From: Escherichia coli
Lineage (GTDB): Bacteria; Pseudomonadota; Gammaproteobacteria; Enterobacterales; Enterobacteriaceae
Strand: one strand, 5' to 3'
Length of the DNA stretch: 64,000 bases
Assembly (NCBI RefSeq): GCF_050920415.1
Contig: NZ_CP169309.1
Position numbers and translations under genes: made by a program. Under the pieces are notes generated by a model. It did not search any database. It was given only the letters and a program-made list of their open reading frames with translations, and was not told the origin of the DNA. Below are positions 5,395 through 44,469 of this stretch, in pieces (position 1 is the first letter of the stretch; each line of letters opens with the position of its first letter).

Positions 5395-6435
5395 TTATGC
5401 TCTGCTTGATTCAGTGATTTTGGAATCCTGCATTTTAGTAATCATACCCATAATTTTATGCCTAAGCTTTTCCATTGGGTTTTCGATTAGATAAAAACTT
5501 ACCGCCCCAACTAAGATTGATGCTACCATCGTTGCTATATACATATAGAAACTGATTCCTACGTACCACACACCCATTGCTAGAATCAGGAAGTGCCATA
5601 GGTATATAGAGAAGCTCCATTTACCAATGTAAGACATTAACGGTGTTGACAGAGCCCAAGCAAATACACCTTCTCCATAGCTCATTAGCAGAACAATGAG
5701 TCCAAATATTGGCGCATAGAAAATAAATTTGTTGAGAACCCATCCATCAGTAAACCCACCAGTTAACTTCCACATAACTTTAGGCAGTGCAATAAGCATT
5801 GATACAATAAAGAACAGGAAGGCTATATCAGACAACTCTTGACCAATTTTAAGGAAATTATCGTGATAGAGAAATGCTGCAATCATTCCGCAAGCAAACA
5901 GTGGGAAATACCACATCACCATTCCGCCATACGCACTATCCATCGCAGGGTACAATCCCTGTAGCAATACAGCCAGTGCGAAAATAAGGAATGCCGCTGC
6001 TTTTCCATTGTACACTTTTTGAATTGCGACACCAGCATACGCAAAGAATGGAAGTATGAAGTAGAATTTATACTCAATTGGTATTGTCCAGAAATGAAGC
6101 ACGGCCTCTTTCATCGTTATGATTGAGATTGCCGTATTCAAATCAAAATACCCAAAATATGAATACACGAGAACAGCTATTGCGAACACCGGAAGGATTC
6201 TCATTGTTCTTCCAAGGAAATAACTTAAAAGAGACCGCCAGGAAAATCCGGTAGAAATAAATCTACTGGTTAGCAAAAATGCGCTGAGAACAAAGAATAT
6301 CCAAACACCAAACTGTGAACTTCCACCAAGCATAACCTCATACTCATGAAAATATATTCCTGTAGCGTGGGCTATTATTACAAGGAATACCGCTATTGCC
6401 CTTAGTCCATCAAGAGACTTGATTTTACCTTTCAT
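5395..6435 (-). CDS. acyltransferase-3 family integral membrane protein, probable O-antigen acetyltransferase (lysogenic-conversion type)
   Basis: ORF 5395..6522; multi-TM product with LDGLRAIAVFLVIIAHA motif near N-terminus; AT-rich; last gene before att, as oac in Sf6. Confidence 0.7.
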   Translation of the reverse strand: MKGKIKSLDGLRAIAVFLVIIAHATGIYFHEYEVMLGGSSQFGVWIFFVLSAFLLTSRFISTGFSWRSLLSYFLGRTMRILPVFAIAVLVYSYFGYFDLNTAISIITMKEAVLHFWTIPIEYKFYFILPFFAYAGVAIQKVYNGKAAAFLIFALAVLLQGLYPAMDSAYGGMVMWYFPLFACGMIAAFLYHDNFLKIGQELSDIAFLFFIVSMLIALPKVMWKLTGGFTDGWVLNKFIFYAPIFGLIVLLMSYGEGVFAWALSTPLMSYIGKWSFSIYLWHFLILAMGVWYVGISFYMYIATMVASILVGAVSFYLIENPMEKLRHKIMGMITKMQDSKITESSRA

Positions 6436-6518
6436 TTCTTTCCCAGATATGGAGTGAACATCTGCGAAAATGTAGCACATTTCAAGGTAAACAAGAAGCG
6501 CATCCATGCGCATTTTCA

Positions 6519-8438
6519 TCACCCTGCCTTGGTGTATGTCCAGTTAAATGTTGTTGTTCCCTGGCTTGTGATGGTTACAATCCTTCCTGTCACTGTAAAT
6601 GATATCAACCCTCCTGACTTAAGCGGAGTTAAAGTAAGTGTTGTTCCGTCCCACATGGCAAGCTGAAGCGAAGAGAAATTTGTTCCACTGCTTTCTGCCC
6701 AAACGCTTATCAGGTACATCCCTTGGCTATTTGGCAGTTCAAACAACGTAGTTGCTACGTTAGCTGCAACAGCCTGAGTTCCTTTCGCTGTGTACACTGC
6801 TGGCAACTGATTACCTGCAGAGCTTCGTGATTCAACATATGAGCCTGAAGTTTGCGTCCCAGTTAATGAGCAGTCAGTAAATACTCCATTCCCTGTGCTG
6901 TAAGTTGATATTACAGGAGTCCCACCAGTCGGAGCCTTAAACCGGCATCCCTCAGCAATTATTTTTGCTGTTGAGTCTGTCAGCAATGTGTTTGGGTATC
7001 CAGAGCCAGTGTAGGTTATTGATTCGCTATCAAGGAAGCTATCGGTACTTGATTTTATGTTAACAATGCTTGTGCCTGTTGCAAAGATAAATGCTGCTGT
7101 CCCACTCCCCGTTGTTTGCATTGAGTTTCCATGCCCGGCCAATCCTGATATATGGGCAATAGTATCATTAAGTTTTATATACGACGCAGTAATTCCATTT
7201 GTATTTTTTATTATATTAGACTCACCATCATACCCTGTAATAGTAAGACACTTACATCCAGAAAAATATAACCCTGAGGAATCAAATGTATATTGCGACC
7301 CGTCAACTGTGATCTGGTCTCCTGCACAGTTTATTAGCTGAGGAGACAGGCAATTTACAACATACCATGCCTGTGCTGCATCCAGCACATAACATGTATC
7401 CCACTGTATTGTCGTTCCGTTCGCCTTATAGAAACCATGTGCAACTCTCCTCGCCCATACCTGGGTATACTTTGTTAGGTAATTTCCAGAGTCATCATAT
7501 ATGGCCCACCATGCACCATCAACCTCAACATTTTTAATGTGCATAACGCCTGGTGAAGTAGTTCCTCCATCAATTAGAATGCCAATTTTACCATCATTGC
7601 CAGTAGGTGATGTAGGGCGTCCTCCATCGTAAAAAATATAGACATTTTCAATATTTATTGTATTAAACGCTGCGTGGTAATGGAAACAAGCTATATTTCC
7701 TATTACTGCTATGAAAGTTTCCGGCCTATTTATGTTGCTGTTTGTTTCGCCATTTATTGTGCAGTTTGAATTCATCTCTATCGTTGCATTTACGAAGTAA
7801 GTTCCAGATGTCAATAATACATTCCGCCCTGTATTAATTGCGGCCTGTATGCCTGCATAGTCAAGAGACTGAGTTAGTGATGTTACGAATGGATAAACAG
7901 CCTGCGCCGCTGATAGTGTGGAGAATTTCTCGCTGAGTGGATGCAGAGTTCCGTCAGCTGTTGCACCGAAATCCTTGGCTGAAATGAAGTTGGTATTTTT
8001 ATCATGTTGAGTTAAAGCTATTGAGCCGATATATGGCTGCTTAACTGCAACTAGTGCATCTCCCATTCCATCAGCATCGCTTTCTAACTGCTGCTTAAAC
8101 TGATCAGGGTCATACTTCAGCACATTAGGAAAATAGAACTGCCGTGCACCATACGCATTATATACAGCCATAGAATGGCCTTGCACAGTTACGAACTTGG
8201 CAATCTGTCCGTTATATACAGGGTAACCAGCGGCGTTAATGATGATTGGTTGCGAAACAGGAACGTGAGAGCCGTCTTCGTTCTCTACATAAACCTGAAT
8301 CTGGTTTTCTGGATTTACTGGGTACGTGTCAATTTTACCGATATAAATTTTGCCATTGGCAACCGCTTTAAAAGAACGCGCCATAGTGAAGAGTTGCGAA
8401 GGCATGCTTACCACAACATTTGCGGTGATATCTGACAT
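6519..8438 (-). CDS. tailspike protein with P22-like N-terminal head-binding domain and divergent C-terminal receptor-binding domain
   Basis: ORF 6519..8486; from ATG 8438 reads [61 protein letters not shown]..., matching the P22 gp9 N-terminus; SD GGAG upstream. Confidence 0.85.
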
Positions 8439-8559
8439 TTCATTGCTCCAGACGAATGATATGATGCAACCATGATGTGATTGCATACCGAAATGGTACT
8501 ATTGAGTATTTATCCAGTAGGTTACGATGCCATTCCACCCAACTGGTGAGGCATCAAGG

Positions 8560-20889: not shown

Positions 20890-22387
20890 TTAAGTTCTCC
20901 GTGCGATGGGCCTGATTGGGGCTGGTATCTTTTTCTCTTTTGGCTTTTTGATGTCGCGCATCATTTTTGCGAAGCGGCGCATCATGTATGCATAGCGAAC
21001 GGCGGATAGCACGTCGTCGTTAAGCTTGACGATTTTCCCGTTTTCATCACGGTGATAGAGGCGGAACTCCTCAAAGAATGGCTCACAGGTGTTGAATACT
21101 TTGAAGCGACCGTCGAGCATCATGTCTCGCAATTCAGTGATGCCAGGCTCAACAGCGTTACCGCCATCAGGCCATGTCGCATGCTCCTGCAACATCATAA
21201 ATCCAGCGTCCGCATACTGCCCTTTGAGCTGCTCACCGCCGCCCTTCTCGTGCTGGTTTCCGTCATGAGGCCATGCGGTTGGCACTTTATGCGCCCATGG
21301 TTTAACAGCTCCCCACGCCTGAACGGCTGTCTTTTCTTTCGCCTTCCAAACGCGTGAAAGGTAGATTATGTCTGCGTCCTTATCCCACCAAAGCTGAACC
21401 TGCGCCTGCGGGTGATCCCATCCGAAATCCATACCGCCAATTACGTAGAAGTGATCAGGACACTCGAACGCTGACACTTAATCGTCTCTTCCGGTATCTG
21501 GAAGATTCGACCACTACCCATCGTAGGAATACCGCGAGCACGCGCCTCTCTCTCATGCTCAGGATAGGATGCGATGATTTGCTCTTTCTGCTCGTCGGTG
21601 TAGTGCTCAGCGTCATAGATGGTCATGTTGACCACTTTCTGAGACTTGCTGGGATTCTTCAGGAACTTGGTAACAACGTCAGACATCCCCATCAGCGGGG
21701 TAAACGTCAGAATTGAGAATTGCCCGTATTTGTTGGTACGGGTAAGACCTTCGCCATAAATGCTGTATGGTGGCTCTTCGTCAAACCACACGCCGTGGAT
21801 TGTGTCACCCTGCCAGCGAGCACGGCCTTGCGAGTATGGTTTGAAGTAGCAGATTGAAATGCCATCTTCAACGCCATCAGCCGTGTGATGCTTAACCAGA
21901 AGATGATCAACAAGGTTCGGAAAGAAAGGAGACTTCTTCCAGCTAATGATGTCTTCTTTCGGTATGGAACGTAGCCTGGCTCACCATTCTCTTCGATACG
22001 ACCGCACAGGATGCGTTGAGTCGTTTTGGTTACAGTCTCGTTTGTCTCTCCACCAATCCAGAAGACAACAGGCTCATAGAAACGCTTACCTTTCCACTCA
22101 CCGCCATATTTACCATCAGCAGGATAGCCTTTTGTGCCCGGATAACGACCGGTAAGGTGAAACGCGACTTCAGCAGCACCAGTAAATGACTTACCAAGCT
22201 GGTTACCAGCCATAAAACATCGCTCTGGATAGTCATGCCCGGCGTCGATGAACTCACGCTGCTTGCTGTATGGCGTAAATTCATATAGCAGGTGTGTGTT
22301 CCGGTAGTTCTCTTCTTCTTCGAGTAGCTCGAGCAACTCGATTTGCTCTTCGTCGCTCAGGTTATCAAGAATCGCGTCCAGTTCCAC
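20890..22387 (-). pseudogene. terminase large subunit gene (P22 gp2-like) split by two -1 frameshifts (near 21957 and 21478)
   Basis: Three consecutive ORF fragments (21707..22387, 21441..21791, 20890..21477) in three frames; span 1498 nt = 3n-2; WFDEEPP motif in middle fragment. Confidence 0.7.
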
Positions 22388-24023: not shown

Positions 24024-24461
24024 TCATTTCAGGCATTGCGTCCTGATGTATTCCTGCAGGTAGTTAACCTGCGCGGTTATCTTGTCGATTCCACTTCTGA
24101 GACGGTAATAATTGAGTTCAGCATCTGCTGTAAGTCTTGGGCTTTCTCCATCGCCCATGCTGTTGGCTCCGGTCGTTGACTTTGCACAGGTGGCGGCGAC
24201 TTGCAGGCGCTTACGACCAGCAGAAACATCAGCACGGAGACTTTCGATAGTCGCATTAGCATCAGCAAGCTCCTTTGTGTATCTGGCGTCAAGTTCTGCT
24301 ACATCACGTTGACGCTTCTGCATGTCAGCGATTGTGGATGCGGCCTTATCGCGCTGTTCTTTGTAGGCGATGGCGTTATCACGGTAATGATTGACCGCCC
24401 ATGACAGACAGACGACGATGCAGATAATCAGAGCGGAGATAATCGCGGTGACTCTGCTCAT
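24024..24461 (-). CDS. Rz: i-spanin Rz (inner-membrane spanin subunit)
   Basis: 145-aa [34 protein letters not shown]... matches lambda Rz N-terminus, then diverges. Confidence 0.85.
24077..24256 (-). CDS. Rz1: o-spanin Rz1 (outer-membrane lipoprotein) embedded in Rz in another frame
   Basis: ORF 24077..24292; [25 protein letters not shown]... lipobox LVVSAC and Pro-rich segment; start uncertain. Confidence 0.6.
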
Positions 24462-24933
24462 ACCTCAATCTCTCTAACCGTTCCGCCTGCTTCTTTGAAT
24501 TTTGCAATCAGGCTGTCAGCCTTATGCTCGAACTGGCCATAACCAGCGCCCGGCAGTGAAGCCCAGATATTGCTGCAACGGTCGATTGCCTGACGAATAT
24601 CACCGCGATCAATCATCGGCAAAGCGCCACGCTCCTTAATCTGCTGCAATGCCACAGCGTCCTGACTTTTCGGAGAGAAGTCTTTCAGGCCAAGCTGCTT
24701 GCGGTAGGCATCCCACCAACGGGAAAGAAGCTGGTAACGTCCGGCTGCTGTTGATTTGAGTTTGGGGTTTAGCGTGACAAGTTTGCGAGGGTGATGGAGT
24801 AATCAGTGAATAGCCCCCCGCCTACAATGACGTCATAACCATGATTTCTGGTTTTCTGACGTCCGTTATCAGTTCCCTCTGACCACGCCAGCATATCGAG
24901 GAACGCCTTACGTTGATTATTGATTTCCACCAT
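24458..24933 (-). pseudogene. R: endolysin R (lambda-type transglycosylase) with a 1-nt deletion frameshift near 24795
   Basis: From ATG 24933: [46 protein letters not shown] then out of frame to a stop; downstream frame (ORF 24458..24655) resumes HPRKLVTLNPKLKS...ALQQIKERGALPMIDRG...; span 476 nt. Confidence 0.7.
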
Positions 24934-25673: not shown

Positions 25674-26297
25674 CTAACGTGTGACCGCATTCAAAATGTT
25701 GTCTGCGATTGACTCTTCTTTGTGGCATTGCACCACCAGAGCGTCATACAGCGGCTTAACAGTGCGTGACCAGGTGGGTTGGGTAAGGTTTGGGATTAGC
25801 ATCGTTACAGCGCGATATGCAGCGCTTGCTGGCATTCTTGAATAGCCGACACCTTTGCATCTTCCGCACTCTTTCTCAACAACTCTCCCCCACTGCTCTG
25901 TTTTGGCTATATCAACCGCACGGCCTGTACCGTGGCAATCTCTGCATCTTGCGCCCGGCGTCGCGGCACTACGGCAATAATCAGCATAAGCGAATGTTGC
26001 GAGCACTTGCAGTACCTTTGCCTTAGTATTTCCTTCGAGCTTTGCCACACCCCGGTATTTCCCCGATACCTTGTGTGCAAATTGCATCAGATAGTTGATA
26101 GCCTTTTGTTTGTCGTTCTGGCTGAGTTCGTGCTTACCACAGAATGCAGCCATTCCGAATCCGGCTTGTGATTGCGCCATCCCCATAGCAGCCATCACAT
26201 CAGTACCGGAAAGAGAGTCAGAAGCCGTGGCCCGTGGTGAGTCACTCATCATCGGGCTTTTTGGCGAATGAAATTTAGCTACGCTTTCTAGTCTCAT
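25674..26297 (-). CDS. Q: late antiterminator Q (lambda-type)
   Basis: 207-aa ORF MRLESVAKFHSPKSPMMSDSPRATASDSLSGTDVMAAMGMAQSQAGFGMAAFCGKHELSQNDKQKAINYLMQFAHK... matches lambda Q. Confidence 0.93.
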   Translation of the reverse strand: MRLESVAKFHSPKSPMMSDSPRATASDSLSGTDVMAAMGMAQSQAGFGMAAFCGKHELSQNDKQKAINYLMQFAHKVSGKYRGVAKLEGNTKAKVLQVLATFAYADYCRSAATPGARCRDCHGTGRAVDIAKTEQWGRVVEKECGRCKGVGYSRMPASAAYRAVTMLIPNLTQPTWSRTVKPLYDALVVQCHKEESIADNILNAVTR

Positions 26298-26482
26298 GGC
26301 CTTCCCCTTTTGCCCTGTTTGACCATCAGGACGCCGTTAACTATTACGTGACGCTCGCCTTTGCTGTCTCGGTTGTACTTGAGCACTGTTCCTCTTGCGC
26401 AGGAAAGCATCCTCGCCACTTCGGTCTGATTGCCTCGTGTCTGGATAAGAAGCTCTGGTATCGTTTGAATTGTGGCGTTCAT
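26294..26482 (-). CDS. ninH: NinH-like small DNA-binding protein
   Basis: 62-aa ORF MNATIQTIPELLIQTRGNQTEVARMLSCARGTVLKYNRD... resembles lambda NinH. Confidence 0.7.
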   Translation of the reverse strand: MNATIQTIPELLIQTRGNQTEVARMLSCARGTVLKYNRDSKGERHVIVNGVLMVKQGKRGRP

Positions 26483-26841
26483 ACGTTCTCCAGTTCGGTG
26501 ATTTTTATTCCAAGCCGTCCGCCTGGTACTTTCACACCACGAATTACGCGAATGTCATCGAATTGCTCGTCGTCTTCCGCAAATCCGGCGTGGATAAGGG
26601 AGTCGAGTAAACCCTTCAGGATGTTATCGAGGTCGCGGCGGCGGGAGTCTGGAACGTCTGCGATGACTTTGATGCGGAGTCGTGATTTGGTGAAAATGTC
26701 TAACTTAAGTTGGCGGATGATTTGCTGAACGTCTTTTCGGTATTTCTGGCCTTTATCGCTGATGTAGTATTGACTCCCCCGTCTTCGCCAGTAGGTGTTC
26801 AGCGACGGCGGGTATGGAAGCACAAACTGATATTCGTTCAT
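26479..26841 (-). CDS. rusA: Holliday junction resolvase RusA family
   Basis: 120-aa ORF with LPYPPSLNTYWRRRG...DVPDSRRRDLDNILKGLLDSL matching RusA motifs. Confidence 0.85.
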   Translation of the reverse strand: MNEYQFVLPYPPSLNTYWRRRGSQYYISDKGQKYRKDVQQIIRQLKLDIFTKSRLRIKVIADVPDSRRRDLDNILKGLLDSLIHAGFAEDDEQFDDIRVIRGVKVPGGRLGIKITELENV

Positions 26842-27128
26842 GGCTTAATCTTCCCCTCCTTCAGCAGTATCGCCTGCGTCCTTATCACGCCTTCGAGGTG
26901 GTAAAGTCTGGCGTCTTTGTTGTCGAGAATCCTTGTGCGTCGGTCGATCTCCGCGTGGCAGTCACTACAAGCCCATGCGCCGATCAGGTCGTCAGGTTTC
27001 ATTCCCGTTCCGCAAATTCCAGCCATCCGGTAATGTGCCAGAACTGTAGTTTCAGGATTGCCATTGCATACGCCGTAAATACGTACCTGGCATTCTCTGT
27101 TGCGCGCTTCTTTGCGTAGGTTAGCCAT
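26838..27128 (-). CDS. DUF1364 (YbcO-like) Cys-rich nin-region protein
   Basis: 96-aa ORF MANLRKEARNRECQVRIYGVCNGNPETTVLAHYRMAGICGTG...CSDCHAEIDRR resembling DLP12 YbcO. Confidence 0.7.
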   Translation of the reverse strand: MANLRKEARNRECQVRIYGVCNGNPETTVLAHYRMAGICGTGMKPDDLIGAWACSDCHAEIDRRTRILDNKDARLYHLEGVIRTQAILLKEGKIKP

Positions 27129-27850
27129 TAAGCAGCCTCCCCTGTTACTTTCAGCATTCCGTTATCGAGCAGCTTTCTGGTCAGCCACTGTTGACCACGC
27201 CCGGTGATTTTTGTGGTGAACGATATCTGTATTCCGTGATTTGTGTTGACCGCTGTTTCTTTCACTGTGAAATAGCCGCGATCCATATATTCCTGCATTG
27301 GCACATTGCGCCGGGAACCTGAAGCAATAAGGATTTTGTGATCACGCATCCACGCAAACAGTTTGTTTGGACCAATACCGACAACCTTTGCAAAGTTTCC
27401 AATCAAAATTCCGCTGGCCTCGCCAACGCGATCGGCAAACTCAACTTTAGGTGCGGCAATTGCGAGCTGGTTTTCCAGTTGCATTTTCTGCTCAGCAAGA
27501 TCAGCAGCAAGGCGCAACGCTTCTGGTAGCGTTTTGGGGATATTAACCGCAGTTTCCTCAAGCTCTCGCCAACGGTCAACAAGACGAGCGGTGAATTCCG
27601 GCGACAACTGGGCAACAACGACAATACTGTCTCGCTTACCTTGTTCGCCTTCGAAGACGTAATGCTCGTACTGAACATTGAACCCTAAGTTATTGATTCT
27701 TTCGGAAACCTCAATTTGAGGAAGCCGGATAACACCATTTTTAGCCAGCGTTTCGATGGTACGTTTCACATTGTCTTGACGCTTACCCACCAACTCAGCG
27801 ATTTCAATGCTTGTCATTTTGATAGCATTGCCATTTATTAACTCATTCAT
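27128..27850 (-). CDS. Roi/antirepressor-like DNA-binding protein (Rha-type N-terminus, KilAC-type C-terminus)
   Basis: 240-aa ORF in nin region; assignment by composition and position. Confidence 0.45.
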   Translation of the reverse strand: MNELINGNAIKMTSIEIAELVGKRQDNVKRTIETLAKNGVIRLPQIEVSERINNLGFNVQYEHYVFEGEQGKRDSIVVVAQLSPEFTARLVDRWRELEETAVNIPKTLPEALRLAADLAEQKMQLENQLAIAAPKVEFADRVGEASGILIGNFAKVVGIGPNKLFAWMRDHKILIASGSRRNVPMQEYMDRGYFTVKETAVNTNHGIQISFTTKITGRGQQWLTRKLLDNGMLKVTGEAA

Positions 27851-28019
27851 CGTCTTCTTCCTCGTACATTGAGCTATTCGGATCGCTCATCAGTTCTGCG
27901 CAGCAATCTGAGCACACGTGAACTTCCAGCACATGCAGCTTCTGACCGCAGTTAGCGCACGTTAAAGCTCGCTCGACGCTTTCTTTCTGGTATTGAAGGG
28001 ATTGGGATGGGCTAAGCAT
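27843..28019 (-). CDS. ninF: NinF
   Basis: Hand-translated 58-aa [61 protein letters not shown] matches lambda NinF; below ORF-track cutoff. Confidence 0.75.
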
Positions 28020-28359
28020 TATTGGCGTCCTGCATCATGAGAAAGACAATCATGGCGGCGCGGAGAGGTCTGGTATCAAATATTGGGCTTACGCCTTTTG
28101 CATCCACACACCATTCAGTTAACTGGTCTAAGATAGAAATCCTGTGTTTCTCAATAATCGGCCATGAGGCACTCGGATCATTGCAGTAGTCAGGTAAATG
28201 GTTTAATGGCTCAAAAGTTGTATCAGCGTTTCCGTAATACCATTTGTTGGTATTATTCCCTGACGTTTCCGGCTTACATGCCCAAAGGCCCTTAAAAATT
28301 ATGTCTCCTACCATTCTGTTAATTTCAAAATCACTTAACTGTGAATAATCCATTGTCAT
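28012..28359 (-). CDS. nin-region hypothetical protein (NinX-like position)
   Basis: ORF 28012..28395; start uncertain (internal Met MTMDYSQ...). Confidence 0.45.
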
Positions 28360-28532
28360 TTCCTCGCACGATGTCTTAGCCACCGGATATCCCACAGGTG
28401 AGCCGTGTAGTTGAAGGTTTTTACGTCAGATTCTTTTGGGATTGGCTTGCGTTTATTTCTGGAGCGTTTCGTTGGAAGGTATTTGCAGTTTTCGCAGATG
28501 ATGTCGGTGAAACTTCGTCGCTGTCGTCTCAT
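28356..28532 (-). CDS. ninD: NinD-like zinc-finger protein
   Basis: ORF 28356..28592; C-terminal [47 protein letters not shown]; start placed at Met overlapping ninB stop. Confidence 0.6.
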
Positions 28533-28969
28533 GCCGCCCTGTCTCCCCATCGCGCTTTCCATTCGAGAGCCAGTCGCGCTTCGTCTGACCACTTAACGCC
28601 ACGCTCTGTACCGAATGCCTGTATAAGCTCTAATAGCTCCGCAAATTCGCTTACACGCATCCTGCTGGTTGACTGGCCTATTACCACAAAGCCATTCCCG
28701 GCAAGGTTAGGAACAACGTCCTGCTGCTTTAATGCTGCGGTAAAAACGCACTTCCAGCTTTCTGCATCCAGCCAGCGACCATGCCATTCAACCTGACGAG
28801 AGACGTCACCTAAGCAGGCCCATAGCTTCCTGTTTTGGTCTAAGCTGCGGTTGCGTTCCTGAATGGTTACTACGATTGGTTTGGTTGGGTCTGGAAGGAT
28901 TTGCTGTACTGCGTGAATAGCGTTTTGCTGATGTGCCGGAGATCGAATTTCAAAGGTTAGTTTTTTCAT
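28529..28969 (-). CDS. ninB: NinB recombination protein
   Basis: ORF 28529..28987; from [66 protein letters not shown]... matches lambda NinB. Confidence 0.88.
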
Positions 28970-29042
28970 GACTTCCCTCTCCCCCAAATAAAAAGGCCTG
29001 CGATTACCAGCAGGCCTGTTACAAGCTCAGTGATGTAGATGG

Positions 29043-32312: not shown

Positions 32313-32390
32313 TTATAACCAAAGATAACTCAAGTTATAAAAAATAGCAATAACCTTTGTTATTTTACTTTGGATAACCGTAGTTATAGA
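32313..32390. promoter_or_regulatory. OR operator cluster with pR/pRM: three 14-bp palindromes ATAAC-N4-GTTAT
   Basis: ataactcaagttat (32325-32338), ataacctttgttat (32350-32363), ataaccgtagttat (32374-32387); putative pR -35 TTGCTA / -10 TATCTT on minus strand. Confidence 0.65.
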
Positions 32391-32399
32391 TTTGTGGGT

Positions 32400-33107
32400 A
32401 TGAAAACATTCGCAGAAAGACTAAATGCAGCCATGAGCTTAGCTGGGGTATCACAATCACAGCTTGCAGACATGGTTGGAATATCTCAGCCAGCCATACA
32501 GAAGATGTCGTCCGGTAAAACAAACGGATCTCGCAAGATGGTTGAATTAGCCAATGCTTTAAAAGTGCGCCCTGAATGGCTTAGTTCTGGTATTGGTGAA
32601 ATGAGGGATGGTGCACATGAAGAACCATCCAATGTCCGTGAGTCATCTTTAAAAGCTGTGGTATGGGAAGACATTAAAAGAAACGATGACGAGTTTGTTG
32701 CGTTGCCTCTTCTTAACGTTTCGCTTTCAGCTGGAAGCGGTAGCTGCGAGCTAGAGGAATCATCGGAGTTCTCTTTGGTTTTCAGAAAGCACTATCTGAA
32801 AAAGATGGGAGTATCTGAAAGATCAGCCAAGCTAGTTAGGGTTGTAGGGCAAAGCATGGAACCTACGCTTCACGATGGCGATGTTGTTGGTGTTAACACG
32901 CAAGATACCACAATCAGAGATGGTAAAACCTACGCTATTTGCCAGTCTGATTTGTTACGAGTAAAAACATTAATCGCCACCCCTACATCGGTGATAATCA
33001 GATCAATAAATCGCGAAGAGTACCCGGATGAAGTAATGGATAGAGATGAATTTCATGAAACCGTAAGGATTATTGGCAGAGTATTCTGGTCGTCTCATAG
33101 TTGGTAA
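32400..33107 (+). CDS. CI-type prophage repressor (N-terminal HTH, C-terminal LexA/S24 autocleavage domain)
   Basis: ORF 32370..33107; MKTFAERLNAAMSLAGVSQSQLADMVGISQPAIQKM... and C-terminal GQSMEPTLHDGDVVGV motif. Confidence 0.85.
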   Translation: MKTFAERLNAAMSLAGVSQSQLADMVGISQPAIQKMSSGKTNGSRKMVELANALKVRPEWLSSGIGEMRDGAHEEPSNVRESSLKAVVWEDIKRNDDEFVALPLLNVSLSAGSGSCELEESSEFSLVFRKHYLKKMGVSERSAKLVRVVGQSMEPTLHDGDVVGVNTQDTTIRDGKTYAICQSDLLRVKTLIATPTSVIIRSINREEYPDEVMDRDEFHETVRIIGRVFWSSHSW

Positions 33108-34932: not shown

Positions 34933-35820
34933 TCAGGCTGCCAGATCATTGTTTCCGATGGAAGCATAATAAGCTTTTTCTGCTTCTGCCGGAGGAGTAT
35001 GGCCCAGCCTTCCCAGCAATCGTCGATTGTTATACCAGTCCACCCACGTGAGTGTGGCCAGTTCCACTTCTGCACGGTTTTTCCAGCTCTTACGGTGTAT
35101 TACCTCCGCTTTGTAAAGACCATTGATGCTCTCAGCCATCGCGTTGTCATACGAGTCGCCTGTACTCCCTGTTGATGCCAGCAGTTTTGCTTCTTTTAGT
35201 CGCTCCGTATAGGCCAGTGACACATACTGAGAGCCTTTATCGCTGTGATGGATGGTGCCAGACGGACGACGGGCCCACAACGCCTGCTCCAGCGCATCCA
35301 GCACGAATGTCGTTTCCATAGACGATGAGACCCGCCACCCCACGATGTATCCGGCAAACACATCAATGATGAACGCCACATAGACGAAGCCCTGCCATGT
35401 GCTGACGTAAGTAAAATCAGCCACCCACAGCTGGTCAGGACGTTCTGCCACGAACTGACGGTTTACGCGGTCACCTGTGGCAACGGTTTTCCGGCTGACG
35501 GTAGTGCGGACCTTTTTACCCCGGAGAACACCGGCAAGTCCCATAACCGCCATGAGGCGCGCCACTGTACATCTGGCCACCCTGATTCCTTCCCGTAACA
35601 ACTGACGCCAGACTTTACGCACACCGTACACCTGATGATTTTCATCGTATACGCGCTGTATCTCTCTCTTCAGCCAGTCATCGCGCTGCGCACGGGCACT
35701 GCGTTTATCAGGATGATGCCGCTGCTGCTGACAATGGTAATACGTTGACGGGGCGATATGCAGTTCACTGCATACCGGTCCGACCCCGTACTGCTCACGC
35801 AGCTTATCCAGCAGTGGCAT
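34933..35820 (-). CDS. IS3-family transposase OrfB (DDE integrase domain)
   Basis: 295-aa ORF with DDE-type catalytic region; overlaps orfA end as expected for programmed -1 frameshift fusion. Confidence 0.85.
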   Translation of the reverse strand: MPLLDKLREQYGVGPVCSELHIAPSTYYHCQQQRHHPDKRSARAQRDDWLKREIQRVYDENHQVYGVRKVWRQLLREGIRVARCTVARLMAVMGLAGVLRGKKVRTTVSRKTVATGDRVNRQFVAERPDQLWVADFTYVSTWQGFVYVAFIIDVFAGYIVGWRVSSSMETTFVLDALEQALWARRPSGTIHHSDKGSQYVSLAYTERLKEAKLLASTGSTGDSYDNAMAESINGLYKAEVIHRKSWKNRAEVELATLTWVDWYNNRRLLGRLGHTPPAEAEKAYYASIGNNDLAA

Positions 35821-43202: not shown

Positions 43203-43421
43203 ATGTACTTGACACTTCAGGAGTGGAACGCTCGCCAGCGACGCCCAAGAAGCCTTGAAACAGTTCGTCGATGGGTGCGCGAATGCAGGATATTCCCTCC
43301 TCCGGTTAAGGATGGAAGAGAATATCTGTTCCACGAATCAGCGGTAAAGGTTGACTTAAATCGACCAGTAACAGGTAGCCTTTTGAAGAGGATCAGAAAT
43401 GGGAAGAAGGCGAAGTCATGA
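43203..43421 (+). CDS. xis: excisionase Xis (lambda-type)
   Basis: 72-aa ORF MYLTLQEWNARQRRPRSLETVRRWVRECRIFPPPVKDGREYLFHESAVKVDLNRPVTGSLLKRIRNGKKAKS matches lambda Xis. Confidence 0.95.
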   Translation: MYLTLQEWNARQRRPRSLETVRRWVRECRIFPPPVKDGREYLFHESAVKVDLNRPVTGSLLKRIRNGKKAKS

Positions 43422-44469
43422 GCGCCGGGATTTACCCCCTAACCTTTATATAAGAAACAATGGATATTACTGCTACAGGGACCCAAGGACGGGTAAAGAG
43501 TTTGGATTAGGCAGAGACAGGCGAATCGCAATCACTGAAGCCATACAGGCCAACATTGAGTTATTTTCAGGACACAAACACAAGCCTCTGACAGCGAGAA
43601 TCAACAGTGATAATTCCGTTACGTTACATTCATGGCTTGATCGCTACGAAAAAATCCTGGCCAGCAGAGGAATCAAGCAGAAGACACTCATAAATTACAT
43701 GAGCAAAATTAAAGCAATAAGGAGGGGGCTGCCTGATGCTCCACTTGAAGACATCACCACAAAAGAAATTGCGGCAATGCTCAATGGATACATAGACGAG
43801 GGCAAGGCGGCGTCAGCCAAGTTAATCAGATCAACACTGAGCGATGCATTCCGAGAGGCAATAGCTGAAGGCCATATAACAACAAACCCTGTCGCTGCCA
43901 CTCGCGCAGCAAAATCAGAGGTAAGGAGATCAAGACTTACGGCTGACGAATACCTGAAAATTTATCAAGCAGCAGAATCATCACCATGTTGGCTCAGACT
44001 TGCAATGGAACTGGCTGTTGTTACCGGGCAACGAGTTGGTGATTTATGCGAAATGAAGTGGTCTGATATCGTAGATGGATATCTTTATGTCGAGCAAAGC
44101 AAAACAGGCGTAAAAATTGCCATCCCAACAACATTGCATGTTGATGCTCTCGGGATATCAATGAAGGAAACACTTGATAAATGCAAAGAGATTCTTGGCG
44201 GAGAAACCATAATTGCATCTACTCGTCGTGAACCGCTTTCATCCGGCACAGTATCAAGGTATTTTATGCGCGCACGAAAAGCATCAGGTCTTTCCTTCGA
44301 AGGGGATCCGCCTACCTTTCACGAGTTGCGCAGTTTGTCTGCAAGACTCTATGAGAAGCAGATAAGCGATAAGTTTGCTCAACATCTTCTCGGGCATAAG
44401 TCGGACACCATGGCATCACAGTATCGTGATGACAGAGGCAGGGAGTGGGACAAAATTGAAATCAAATAA
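43399..44469 (+). CDS. int: integrase Int (lambda-type tyrosine recombinase)
   Basis: 356-aa ORF MGRRRSHERRDLPPNLYIRNNGYYCYRDPRTGKEFGLGRDRRIAITEAIQANIELFSG... matches lambda Int. Confidence 0.96.
   Translation: MGRRRSHERRDLPPNLYIRNNGYYCYRDPRTGKEFGLGRDRRIAITEAIQANIELFSGHKHKPLTARINSDNSVTLHSWLDRYEKILASRGIKQKTLINYMSKIKAIRRGLPDAPLEDITTKEIAAMLNGYIDEGKAASAKLIRSTLSDAFREAIAEGHITTNPVAATRAAKSEVRRSRLTADEYLKIYQAAESSPCWLRLAMELAVVTGQRVGDLCEMKWSDIVDGYLYVEQSKTGVKIAIPTTLHVDALGISMKETLDKCKEILGGETIIASTRREPLSSGTVSRYFMRARKASGLSFEGDPPTFHELRSLSARLYEKQISDKFAQHLLGHKSDTMASQYRDDRGREWDKIEIK

Follow-up and report, generated by a model that had tools for sequence, protein, structure and literature searches.

The open reading frame at 27128-27850 on the minus strand of the window (the whole 64,000-nucleotide stretch of Escherichia coli DNA analyzed here) is identified by its sequence as the roi gene of a P22/HK620-like lambdoid prophage, an ordinary gene that is already known and annotated. 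The evidence as a whole is very probably best explained by a roi gene of such a prophage that is expressed as a delayed-early gene, encodes a two-domain protein, and functions as does its counterpart in phage HK022. The 240-aa product is 99.2% identical to the HK620 protein annotated "roi: DNA-binding protein Roi," 99.6% identical to the copy in an Stx1a phage, and 88% identical to HK022 Roi over 241 aa (E = 2e-157). A search of a phage collection returned 1622 records, the best of which were 98-99.6% identical over all 240 residues; these best matches included HK620, HK633, N7, Kapi1, and many Stx1 and Stx2 phages. A protein search retrieved 7348 homologues at E <= 1e-5. Given this number of homologues and the full-length matches in many phage records, the open reading frame stands far above chance. 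Of 5426 complete E. coli genomes, 2390 contain a match to the local nin segment, and RefSeq labels the gene there "phage antirepressor KilAC domain-containing protein." An identical 240-aa protein is present in NCBI on 25 contigs (e.g., EGE66106.1), and its 90% cluster has 2355 members. Thousands of prophages in E. coli and Salmonella carry this accessory gene, which has little significance as found.

Gene order agrees with this identification. The order in the window, NinB-NinE-NinX-NinF-Roi-YbcO-RusA-NinH-Q, is also the order in HK620, HK022, and HK629, and the HK620 annotation reads ninB-ninE-ninF-roi-HkbD-rus-ninH-Q. The HK022 RefSeq record is sparsely annotated; its open reading frame list gives a 241-aa Roi at L002:6656-7381, in the equivalent slot. 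The features of the region in the window are as follows.

28994-29017, minus strand: tR2-like intrinsic terminator ahead of ninB (from a terminator scan; 8-bp stem, 6 of its pairs GC, and a T-run)
28529-28987: NinB (Pfam)
28356-28592: NinE (Pfam, 144.3 bits)
28012-28395: NinX (Pfam)
27843-28019, minus strand: NinF, directly upstream of roi and overlapping its start (Pfam, 51.6 bits)
27859-27863, minus strand: Shine-Dalgarno sequence GAGGA, 8 nt 5' of the roi ATG and within the end of ninF (read from the sequence)
27128-27850, minus strand: roi coding sequence, 240 aa, intact from ATG to stop (open reading frame list)
26838-27128, minus strand: YbcO (ybcO-like gene), directly downstream of roi, its start overlapping the roi stop (Pfam, 143.3 bits)
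26479-26841: RusA (Pfam)
26294-26482: NinH (Pfam)
25674-26297: Q antiterminator (Pfam)

The preliminary description of this DNA had placed a 240-aa, roi-like protein at 27128-27850 on a lambda-like nin backbone. The frame lies exactly there, on the minus strand (the description gave no strand), and both the identities to HK620 and HK022 Roi and the matching gene order bear out the comparison with Roi. Among the backbone genes that it listed, ninB, ninX, ninF, the YbcO-like gene, rusA, and ninH were all recovered by Pfam, while the gene it had called ninD proved to be NinE. As in HK022, HK620, and the Stx phages, roi sits in the nin operon between replication gene P and Q, flanked by ninF on its upstream side and by the ybcO-like/ninG gene on the other.

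The end of ninF and the start of roi share 8 nt, and the TAA stop of roi overlaps the ATG start of the ybcO-like gene (TAATG). From these overlaps, roi is predicted to be translationally coupled to both neighbors within the nin operon. No promoter-like site was found between the tR2-like terminator and Q, and the HK620 annotation places tR2 at the position equivalent to that terminator; downstream of Q, pR'-like and tR'-like signals are present. With no promoter-like site from the tR2-like terminator to Q, and with overlapping start and stop codons, roi most plausibly belongs to the antitermination-dependent, delayed-early rightward transcript. With no consensus promoter of its own, roi would be expressed when antitermination takes RNA polymerase beyond the tR2-like terminator, and Roi would then be made as a delayed-early protein. 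Separately, a weak terminator-like hairpin with a 7-bp stem and a poor T-run (27412-27428, minus strand) occurs in the sense strand of roi, in the portion that encodes KilAC. Terminator-like sites numbered 16 in the scanned region against 9.4 expected, and this hairpin probably arose by chance.

Within the gene, the following features were located.

27776-27778, minus strand: codon 25, carrying H25Q at the start of the predicted recognition helix
27554-27817, minus strand: N-terminal Rha-type winged helix-turn-helix domain, aa 12-99 (Pfam PF09669, Phage_pRha)
27656-27787, minus strand: hypervariable cassette, aa 22-65, comprising the predicted recognition helix and beta-hairpin wing (nucleotide and protein comparison, AlphaFold2 model)
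27686-27698, minus strand: IHF-consensus match AATCAATAACTTA (WATCAANNNNTTR), roi nt 153-165 (consensus scan)
27419-27529, minus strand: long central helix joining both domains, aa 108-144 (secondary structure of the AlphaFold2 model)
27167-27475, minus strand: C-terminal ANT/KilAC domain, aa 126-228 (Pfam PF03374)

Membership in Pfam families was judged by the curated gathering thresholds (29.9 bits for Phage_pRha and 25.3 bits for ANT). The Phage_pRha profile aligned to aa 12-99 with 31.4 bits, covering profile positions 1-91 of 91, while the ANT/KilAC profile aligned to aa 126-228 with 113.6 bits, covering positions 1-106 of 108. The match to Phage_pRha is marginal and depends on the allele, as both the HK022 allele, at 25.2 bits, and the 933W-type allele, at 28.8 bits, fall short of the threshold. 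The preliminary description had assigned the protein a Rha-type N terminus and a KilAC-type C terminus and had proposed a domain search as the check, with the lack of any Rha-, KilA-, or Ant-type domain counting against it. That search returned both Phage_pRha and ANT, so the assignment stands, strongly for KilAC and marginally for Rha. PHROG 63 ("anti-repressor Ant") matched across the entire protein (1e-97), and a search of a viral structure library retrieved proteins annotated as KilAC, Rha, or antirepressor, 29 of them at E <= 1e-3. Searches with Roi matched no NCBIfam model and no PDB entry by sequence, even at E <= 1, and Foldseek with the Roi model matched no PDB chain. A weak match to Csa3 in the PADLOC defense library (E = 0.006, 14.6 bits) was dismissed as generic winged-helix likeness.

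An AlphaFold2 model of Roi was built from a 71-sequence alignment of diverse full-length relatives. Its mean pLDDT of 90.8 and pTM of 0.56 are consistent with two well-defined domains whose mutual orientation is uncertain. At the N terminus, a strand (residues 11-13), two helices (14-21 and 25-37), and a hairpin (45-52/58-67) form a predicted winged helix-turn-helix, which is the fold of Phage_pRha. The middle of the model consists of helices 68-82 and 84-101, followed by a 37-residue helix (108-144), which could possibly serve as a dimerization element. Helices 150-157 and 161-170, a hairpin (194-215), and a final helix (217-229) make up the C terminus.

Roi has been described as a DNA-binding protein that blocks lytic growth of HK022 in hosts lacking IHF (Clerget and Boccard 1996, J Bacteriol 178:4077, as cited in PMC3430580 and PMC4587872), and the title of that paper names the inhibition of lytic growth by Roi in IHF mutants. 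The Rha family, named for rha of phi80 and orf201 of P22, likewise blocks phage growth in IHF-defective hosts (PMC4936722). Because Roi and Rha share this IHF-dependent phenotype, the weak Rha match is biologically coherent. The N-terminal domain of Roi also matches the full Rha profile. In contrast to Roi, which is encoded in the early nin operon, Rha of phi80 and Orf201 (Rha) of P22 are encoded by late-operon genes, and Roi differs further in its additional KilAC domain and in its marginal match to Rha (31.4 versus 29.9 bits). No rha gene of the P22 kind was found in the late region of this prophage. By analogy with the HK022 prototype, the protein in the window would bind DNA and restrain lytic development; in a host without IHF, this effect would be lethal to the phage, as is the case for Rha of phi80 and P22. 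We know of almost no functional work on Roi since 1996.

The window protein and HK022 Roi are nearly equal in length (240 and 241 aa) and share the same domain pair, as do the HK620 and Stx-phage proteins. Residues 1-21 are identical to those of HK022 Roi and residues 66-240 almost identical, whereas at residues 22-65 the two proteins look unrelated; there, the window protein carries the cassette of the HK620/Stx-phage type. In the DNA, the 97-100% identity to HK022 and HK629 drops abruptly to 47-70% at roi nt ~62 and recovers just as abruptly at nt ~192. In a set of 114 close homologues, identity to the query is only 50-63% across residues 21-60 but 97-100% across residues 141-240, and the ANT/KilAC domain is 98-100% conserved. 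The cassette occurs in 27 distinct variants, of at least six types, among these 114 proteins, which are otherwise 98-99% identical. Mapped onto the model, it coincides exactly with the predicted recognition helix and the whole wing. We infer from sequence and model that the cassette sets the DNA specificity of Roi and is swapped by recombination; recombinational exchange of modules is usual for lambdoid mosaics. The variable N-terminal domain would thus direct each phage's Roi to phage-specific DNA targets, and the conserved KilAC domain would contact a conserved partner. A second mosaic module with two alleles (roi nt ~282-400) covers the linker and overlaps the central helix. In the Stx1a phage Stx1_120412, an in-frame TAA lies within the cassette at roi codon ~45 (CAT CCT TAA ATT GAG; L005, locus nt ~1630), and this copy appears to be a pseudogene. 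The literature describes roi as dispensable and as disrupted by IS629 in some Stx phages (O157 Stx2a phages). Taken together, the in-frame stop and the IS629 insertions suggest that roi is often lost.

Roi reportedly binds a site within its own gene that adjoins an IHF site. The window contains five matches to the IHF consensus against 3.3 expected and is not enriched. One match falls within the cassette of roi (27686-27698) and is kept in position in four of five divergent alleles (cassette types), where it codes for the conserved wing-tip peptide IN-x-LG. This match cannot be called a site, because the window is not enriched and the protein constraint on IN-x-LG explains its retention equally well. 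The sole inverted repeat in roi (13-nt arms, 77% complementary, 27578-27590 and 27633-27645) does not exceed the shuffled expectation (5 versus 8.0 +/- 4.7), and a comparison of the cassette DNA of six roi copies representing five cassette types puts the short exact repeats of the window allele, inverted as well as direct, at chance level. Neither within roi nor close to it did the searches reveal an operator-like repeat or palindrome that exceeded chance. The roi allele of a 933W-type Stx phage (L004) carries an 8-bp perfect inverted repeat, TTCAACTT-N13-AAGTTGAA, at nt 122-150; this repeat is not present in the other alleles, and the same cassette has no IHF-consensus match.

The prophage that carries roi is P22/HK620-like, with a P22-type portal, a tailspike with a head-binding domain, a Rad52-type recombinase, and an SSB. 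Features outside the nin region are listed below.

43399-44469: lambda-type integrase
34933-35820, minus strand: IS3-family transposase (rve, HTH_21) in the early-left region, between the immunity region and the recombination genes
32370-33107: S24-peptidase repressor
24458-24933, minus strand: endolysin (R) gene, split into open reading frames of 54 aa and 65 aa, with the lesion near 24795-24796
20890-22387, minus strand: large terminase, broken, with the N-terminal domain at 21707-22387 and the C-terminal nuclease domain at 20890-21477
6519-8486, minus strand: tailspike
5395-6522, minus strand: Acyl_transf_3 family gene, directly downstream of the tailspike gene

The lesion in the endolysin gene is a 1-bp deletion relative to R of HK022 (CTCC-ATCACC versus CTCCGATCACC), to which the gene is otherwise 98% identical, and reading through the large terminase requires two frame changes, at ~21970 and ~21490. 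These lesions indicate either a decaying (defective) prophage or indel errors in the assembly. The Acyl_transf_3 gene is likely an O-antigen acetyltransferase gene (a serotype-conversion moron). Unlike the HK022, HK620, and Stx-phage proteins, the window protein bears one unusual substitution, H25Q, which is its only difference from the common allele. Among 268 homologues, residue 25 is histidine in 213, proline in 32, and glutamine in none. From its place in the model, H25Q could alter binding. We considered whether it is a private lesion of this prophage and rejected this, as the exact Q25 protein occurs on 25 public contigs.

These observations bear on a reading in which roi is a passenger, intact by chance in a dying prophage, with its DNA binding disabled by H25Q. 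With the endolysin and terminase frameshifted, roi may no longer be under selection here, and the IS3-family transposase, the absence of glutamine at residue 25 in the homologues, the dispensability of roi and its IS629 disruption in some Stx phages, and the apparent in-frame stop in one Stx1 copy all point in the same direction. However, the full 240-aa frame is intact and a single change away from the common allele, the same Q25 protein evidently circulates (25 contigs), proline is accepted at residue 25 in a whole allele class, and the frameshifts could be assembly errors, so we regard decay of this kind as very unlikely. A true antirepressor, which would inactivate the CI-type repressor of its own or a co-resident prophage and so promote lytic growth as P1 Ant1 and P22 Ant do, is an unlikely account as well. 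It is what the database names suggest (the PHROG 63 description and the RefSeq relabeling), and the C-terminal half of Roi, with the KilAC domain common to P1 Ant1 and KilA, is 57.6% identical to a P1-type Ant1 (aa 73-234). Nevertheless, the phenotype reported for Roi is inhibition of lytic growth rather than its promotion, and neither PMC3430580 nor PMC4587872 reports that Roi inactivates a repressor or takes part in the lysis/lysogeny decision. Moreover, roi is located downstream of the immunity region and belongs to an operon that is expressed only once repression has been lifted, so that a role in triggering induction would be illogical for its own phage. Classical ant genes (P22 immI and P1 immI) are controlled by a dedicated repression module, and in P1 the target of Ant1, within immI, is the C1 repressor; roi has no such module. 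Typically, though not by strict definition, a classical ant gene resides in an immunity module that has its own promoter and negative control, whereas roi overlaps ninF and ybcO and no promoter-like site was found for it. The N-terminal domain of Roi is a predicted DNA-binding fold and differs from that of P1 Ant1/KilA. The C-terminal half of Roi is said to resemble P1 Ant1 and KilA, and the label "antirepressor" was passed to Roi on account of its KilAC domain rather than from any experiment on the protein.

A further reading extends the HK022-type explanation rather than excluding it. In Listeria, overexpression of the KilAC domain of AriS, A118 Gp42, or Lin2418 blocked mitomycin-induced lysis and SOS transcription (Azulay et al. 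2022, PMC9043618). The target of such proteins is probably RecA, as inferred rather than demonstrated in that study, and their N-terminal domain is interchangeable (AntA/B, Bro-N, or pRha) and regulates the phage's own genes; pRha plus KilAC is among the natural AriS-like architectures described there (PMC9043618). Roi has this architecture according to Pfam, and its KilAC domain and the one in Gp42 of Listeria phage A118 are homologous, sharing 32% identity across 117 aa (E = 1e-16). It is therefore possible, if tentative, that Roi is a dual regulator whose Rha domain controls phage genes and whose KilAC domain damps the host SOS response, probably via RecA, and that it would thereby tune the induction of its own and co-resident prophages. 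The conservation pattern fits, with a phage-specific N terminus and an invariant C terminus, and the prophage repressor is an S24-peptidase, the RecA-cleavable type. AriS (of phi10403S) and Gp42 (of A118) are, like Roi, two-domain proteins with a homologous C-terminal KilAC domain, but they have an AntA/AntB N terminus, and the identity of Roi to the tested proteins is only 32%, with hosts in different phyla (theirs being Gram positive). The SOS effect was seen only on overexpression with the target inferred, and no SOS effect has been reported for Roi. The KilA-C domain of S. aureus phage Phi11 Gp07, a Bro-N plus KilA-C protein that shares its C terminus but not its N terminus with Roi, caused growth inhibition and filamentation when overexpressed in E. 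coli (PMC5944126), the opposite of what damping of SOS would predict. More specifically, and more doubtfully, Roi might be the enterobacterial counterpart of AriS, with a cassette that would supply every lambdoid or Stx phage with a DNA target specific to it and a KilAC domain that would damp SOS after induction by acting on some conserved host factor, for example RecA. If this were so, Roi would coordinate or interfere with co-resident prophages, including Shiga toxin phages. Most Stx phages carry roi, and these hypotheses bear on the induction of Shiga toxin phages; they rest on the confinement of variability to the predicted DNA-reading surface and on the homology of the invariant half to the SOS-damping domain of Listeria.

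Finally, some database entries for Roi are longer than the window protein. Two entries of 304 aa (P0001 and P0002) have a 64-residue N-terminal extension, and two of 294 aa (P0006 and P0007) pair a NinB domain with KilAC. Such longer entries may reflect genuine deletions or fusions within the nin region, or else artifacts of gene calling.
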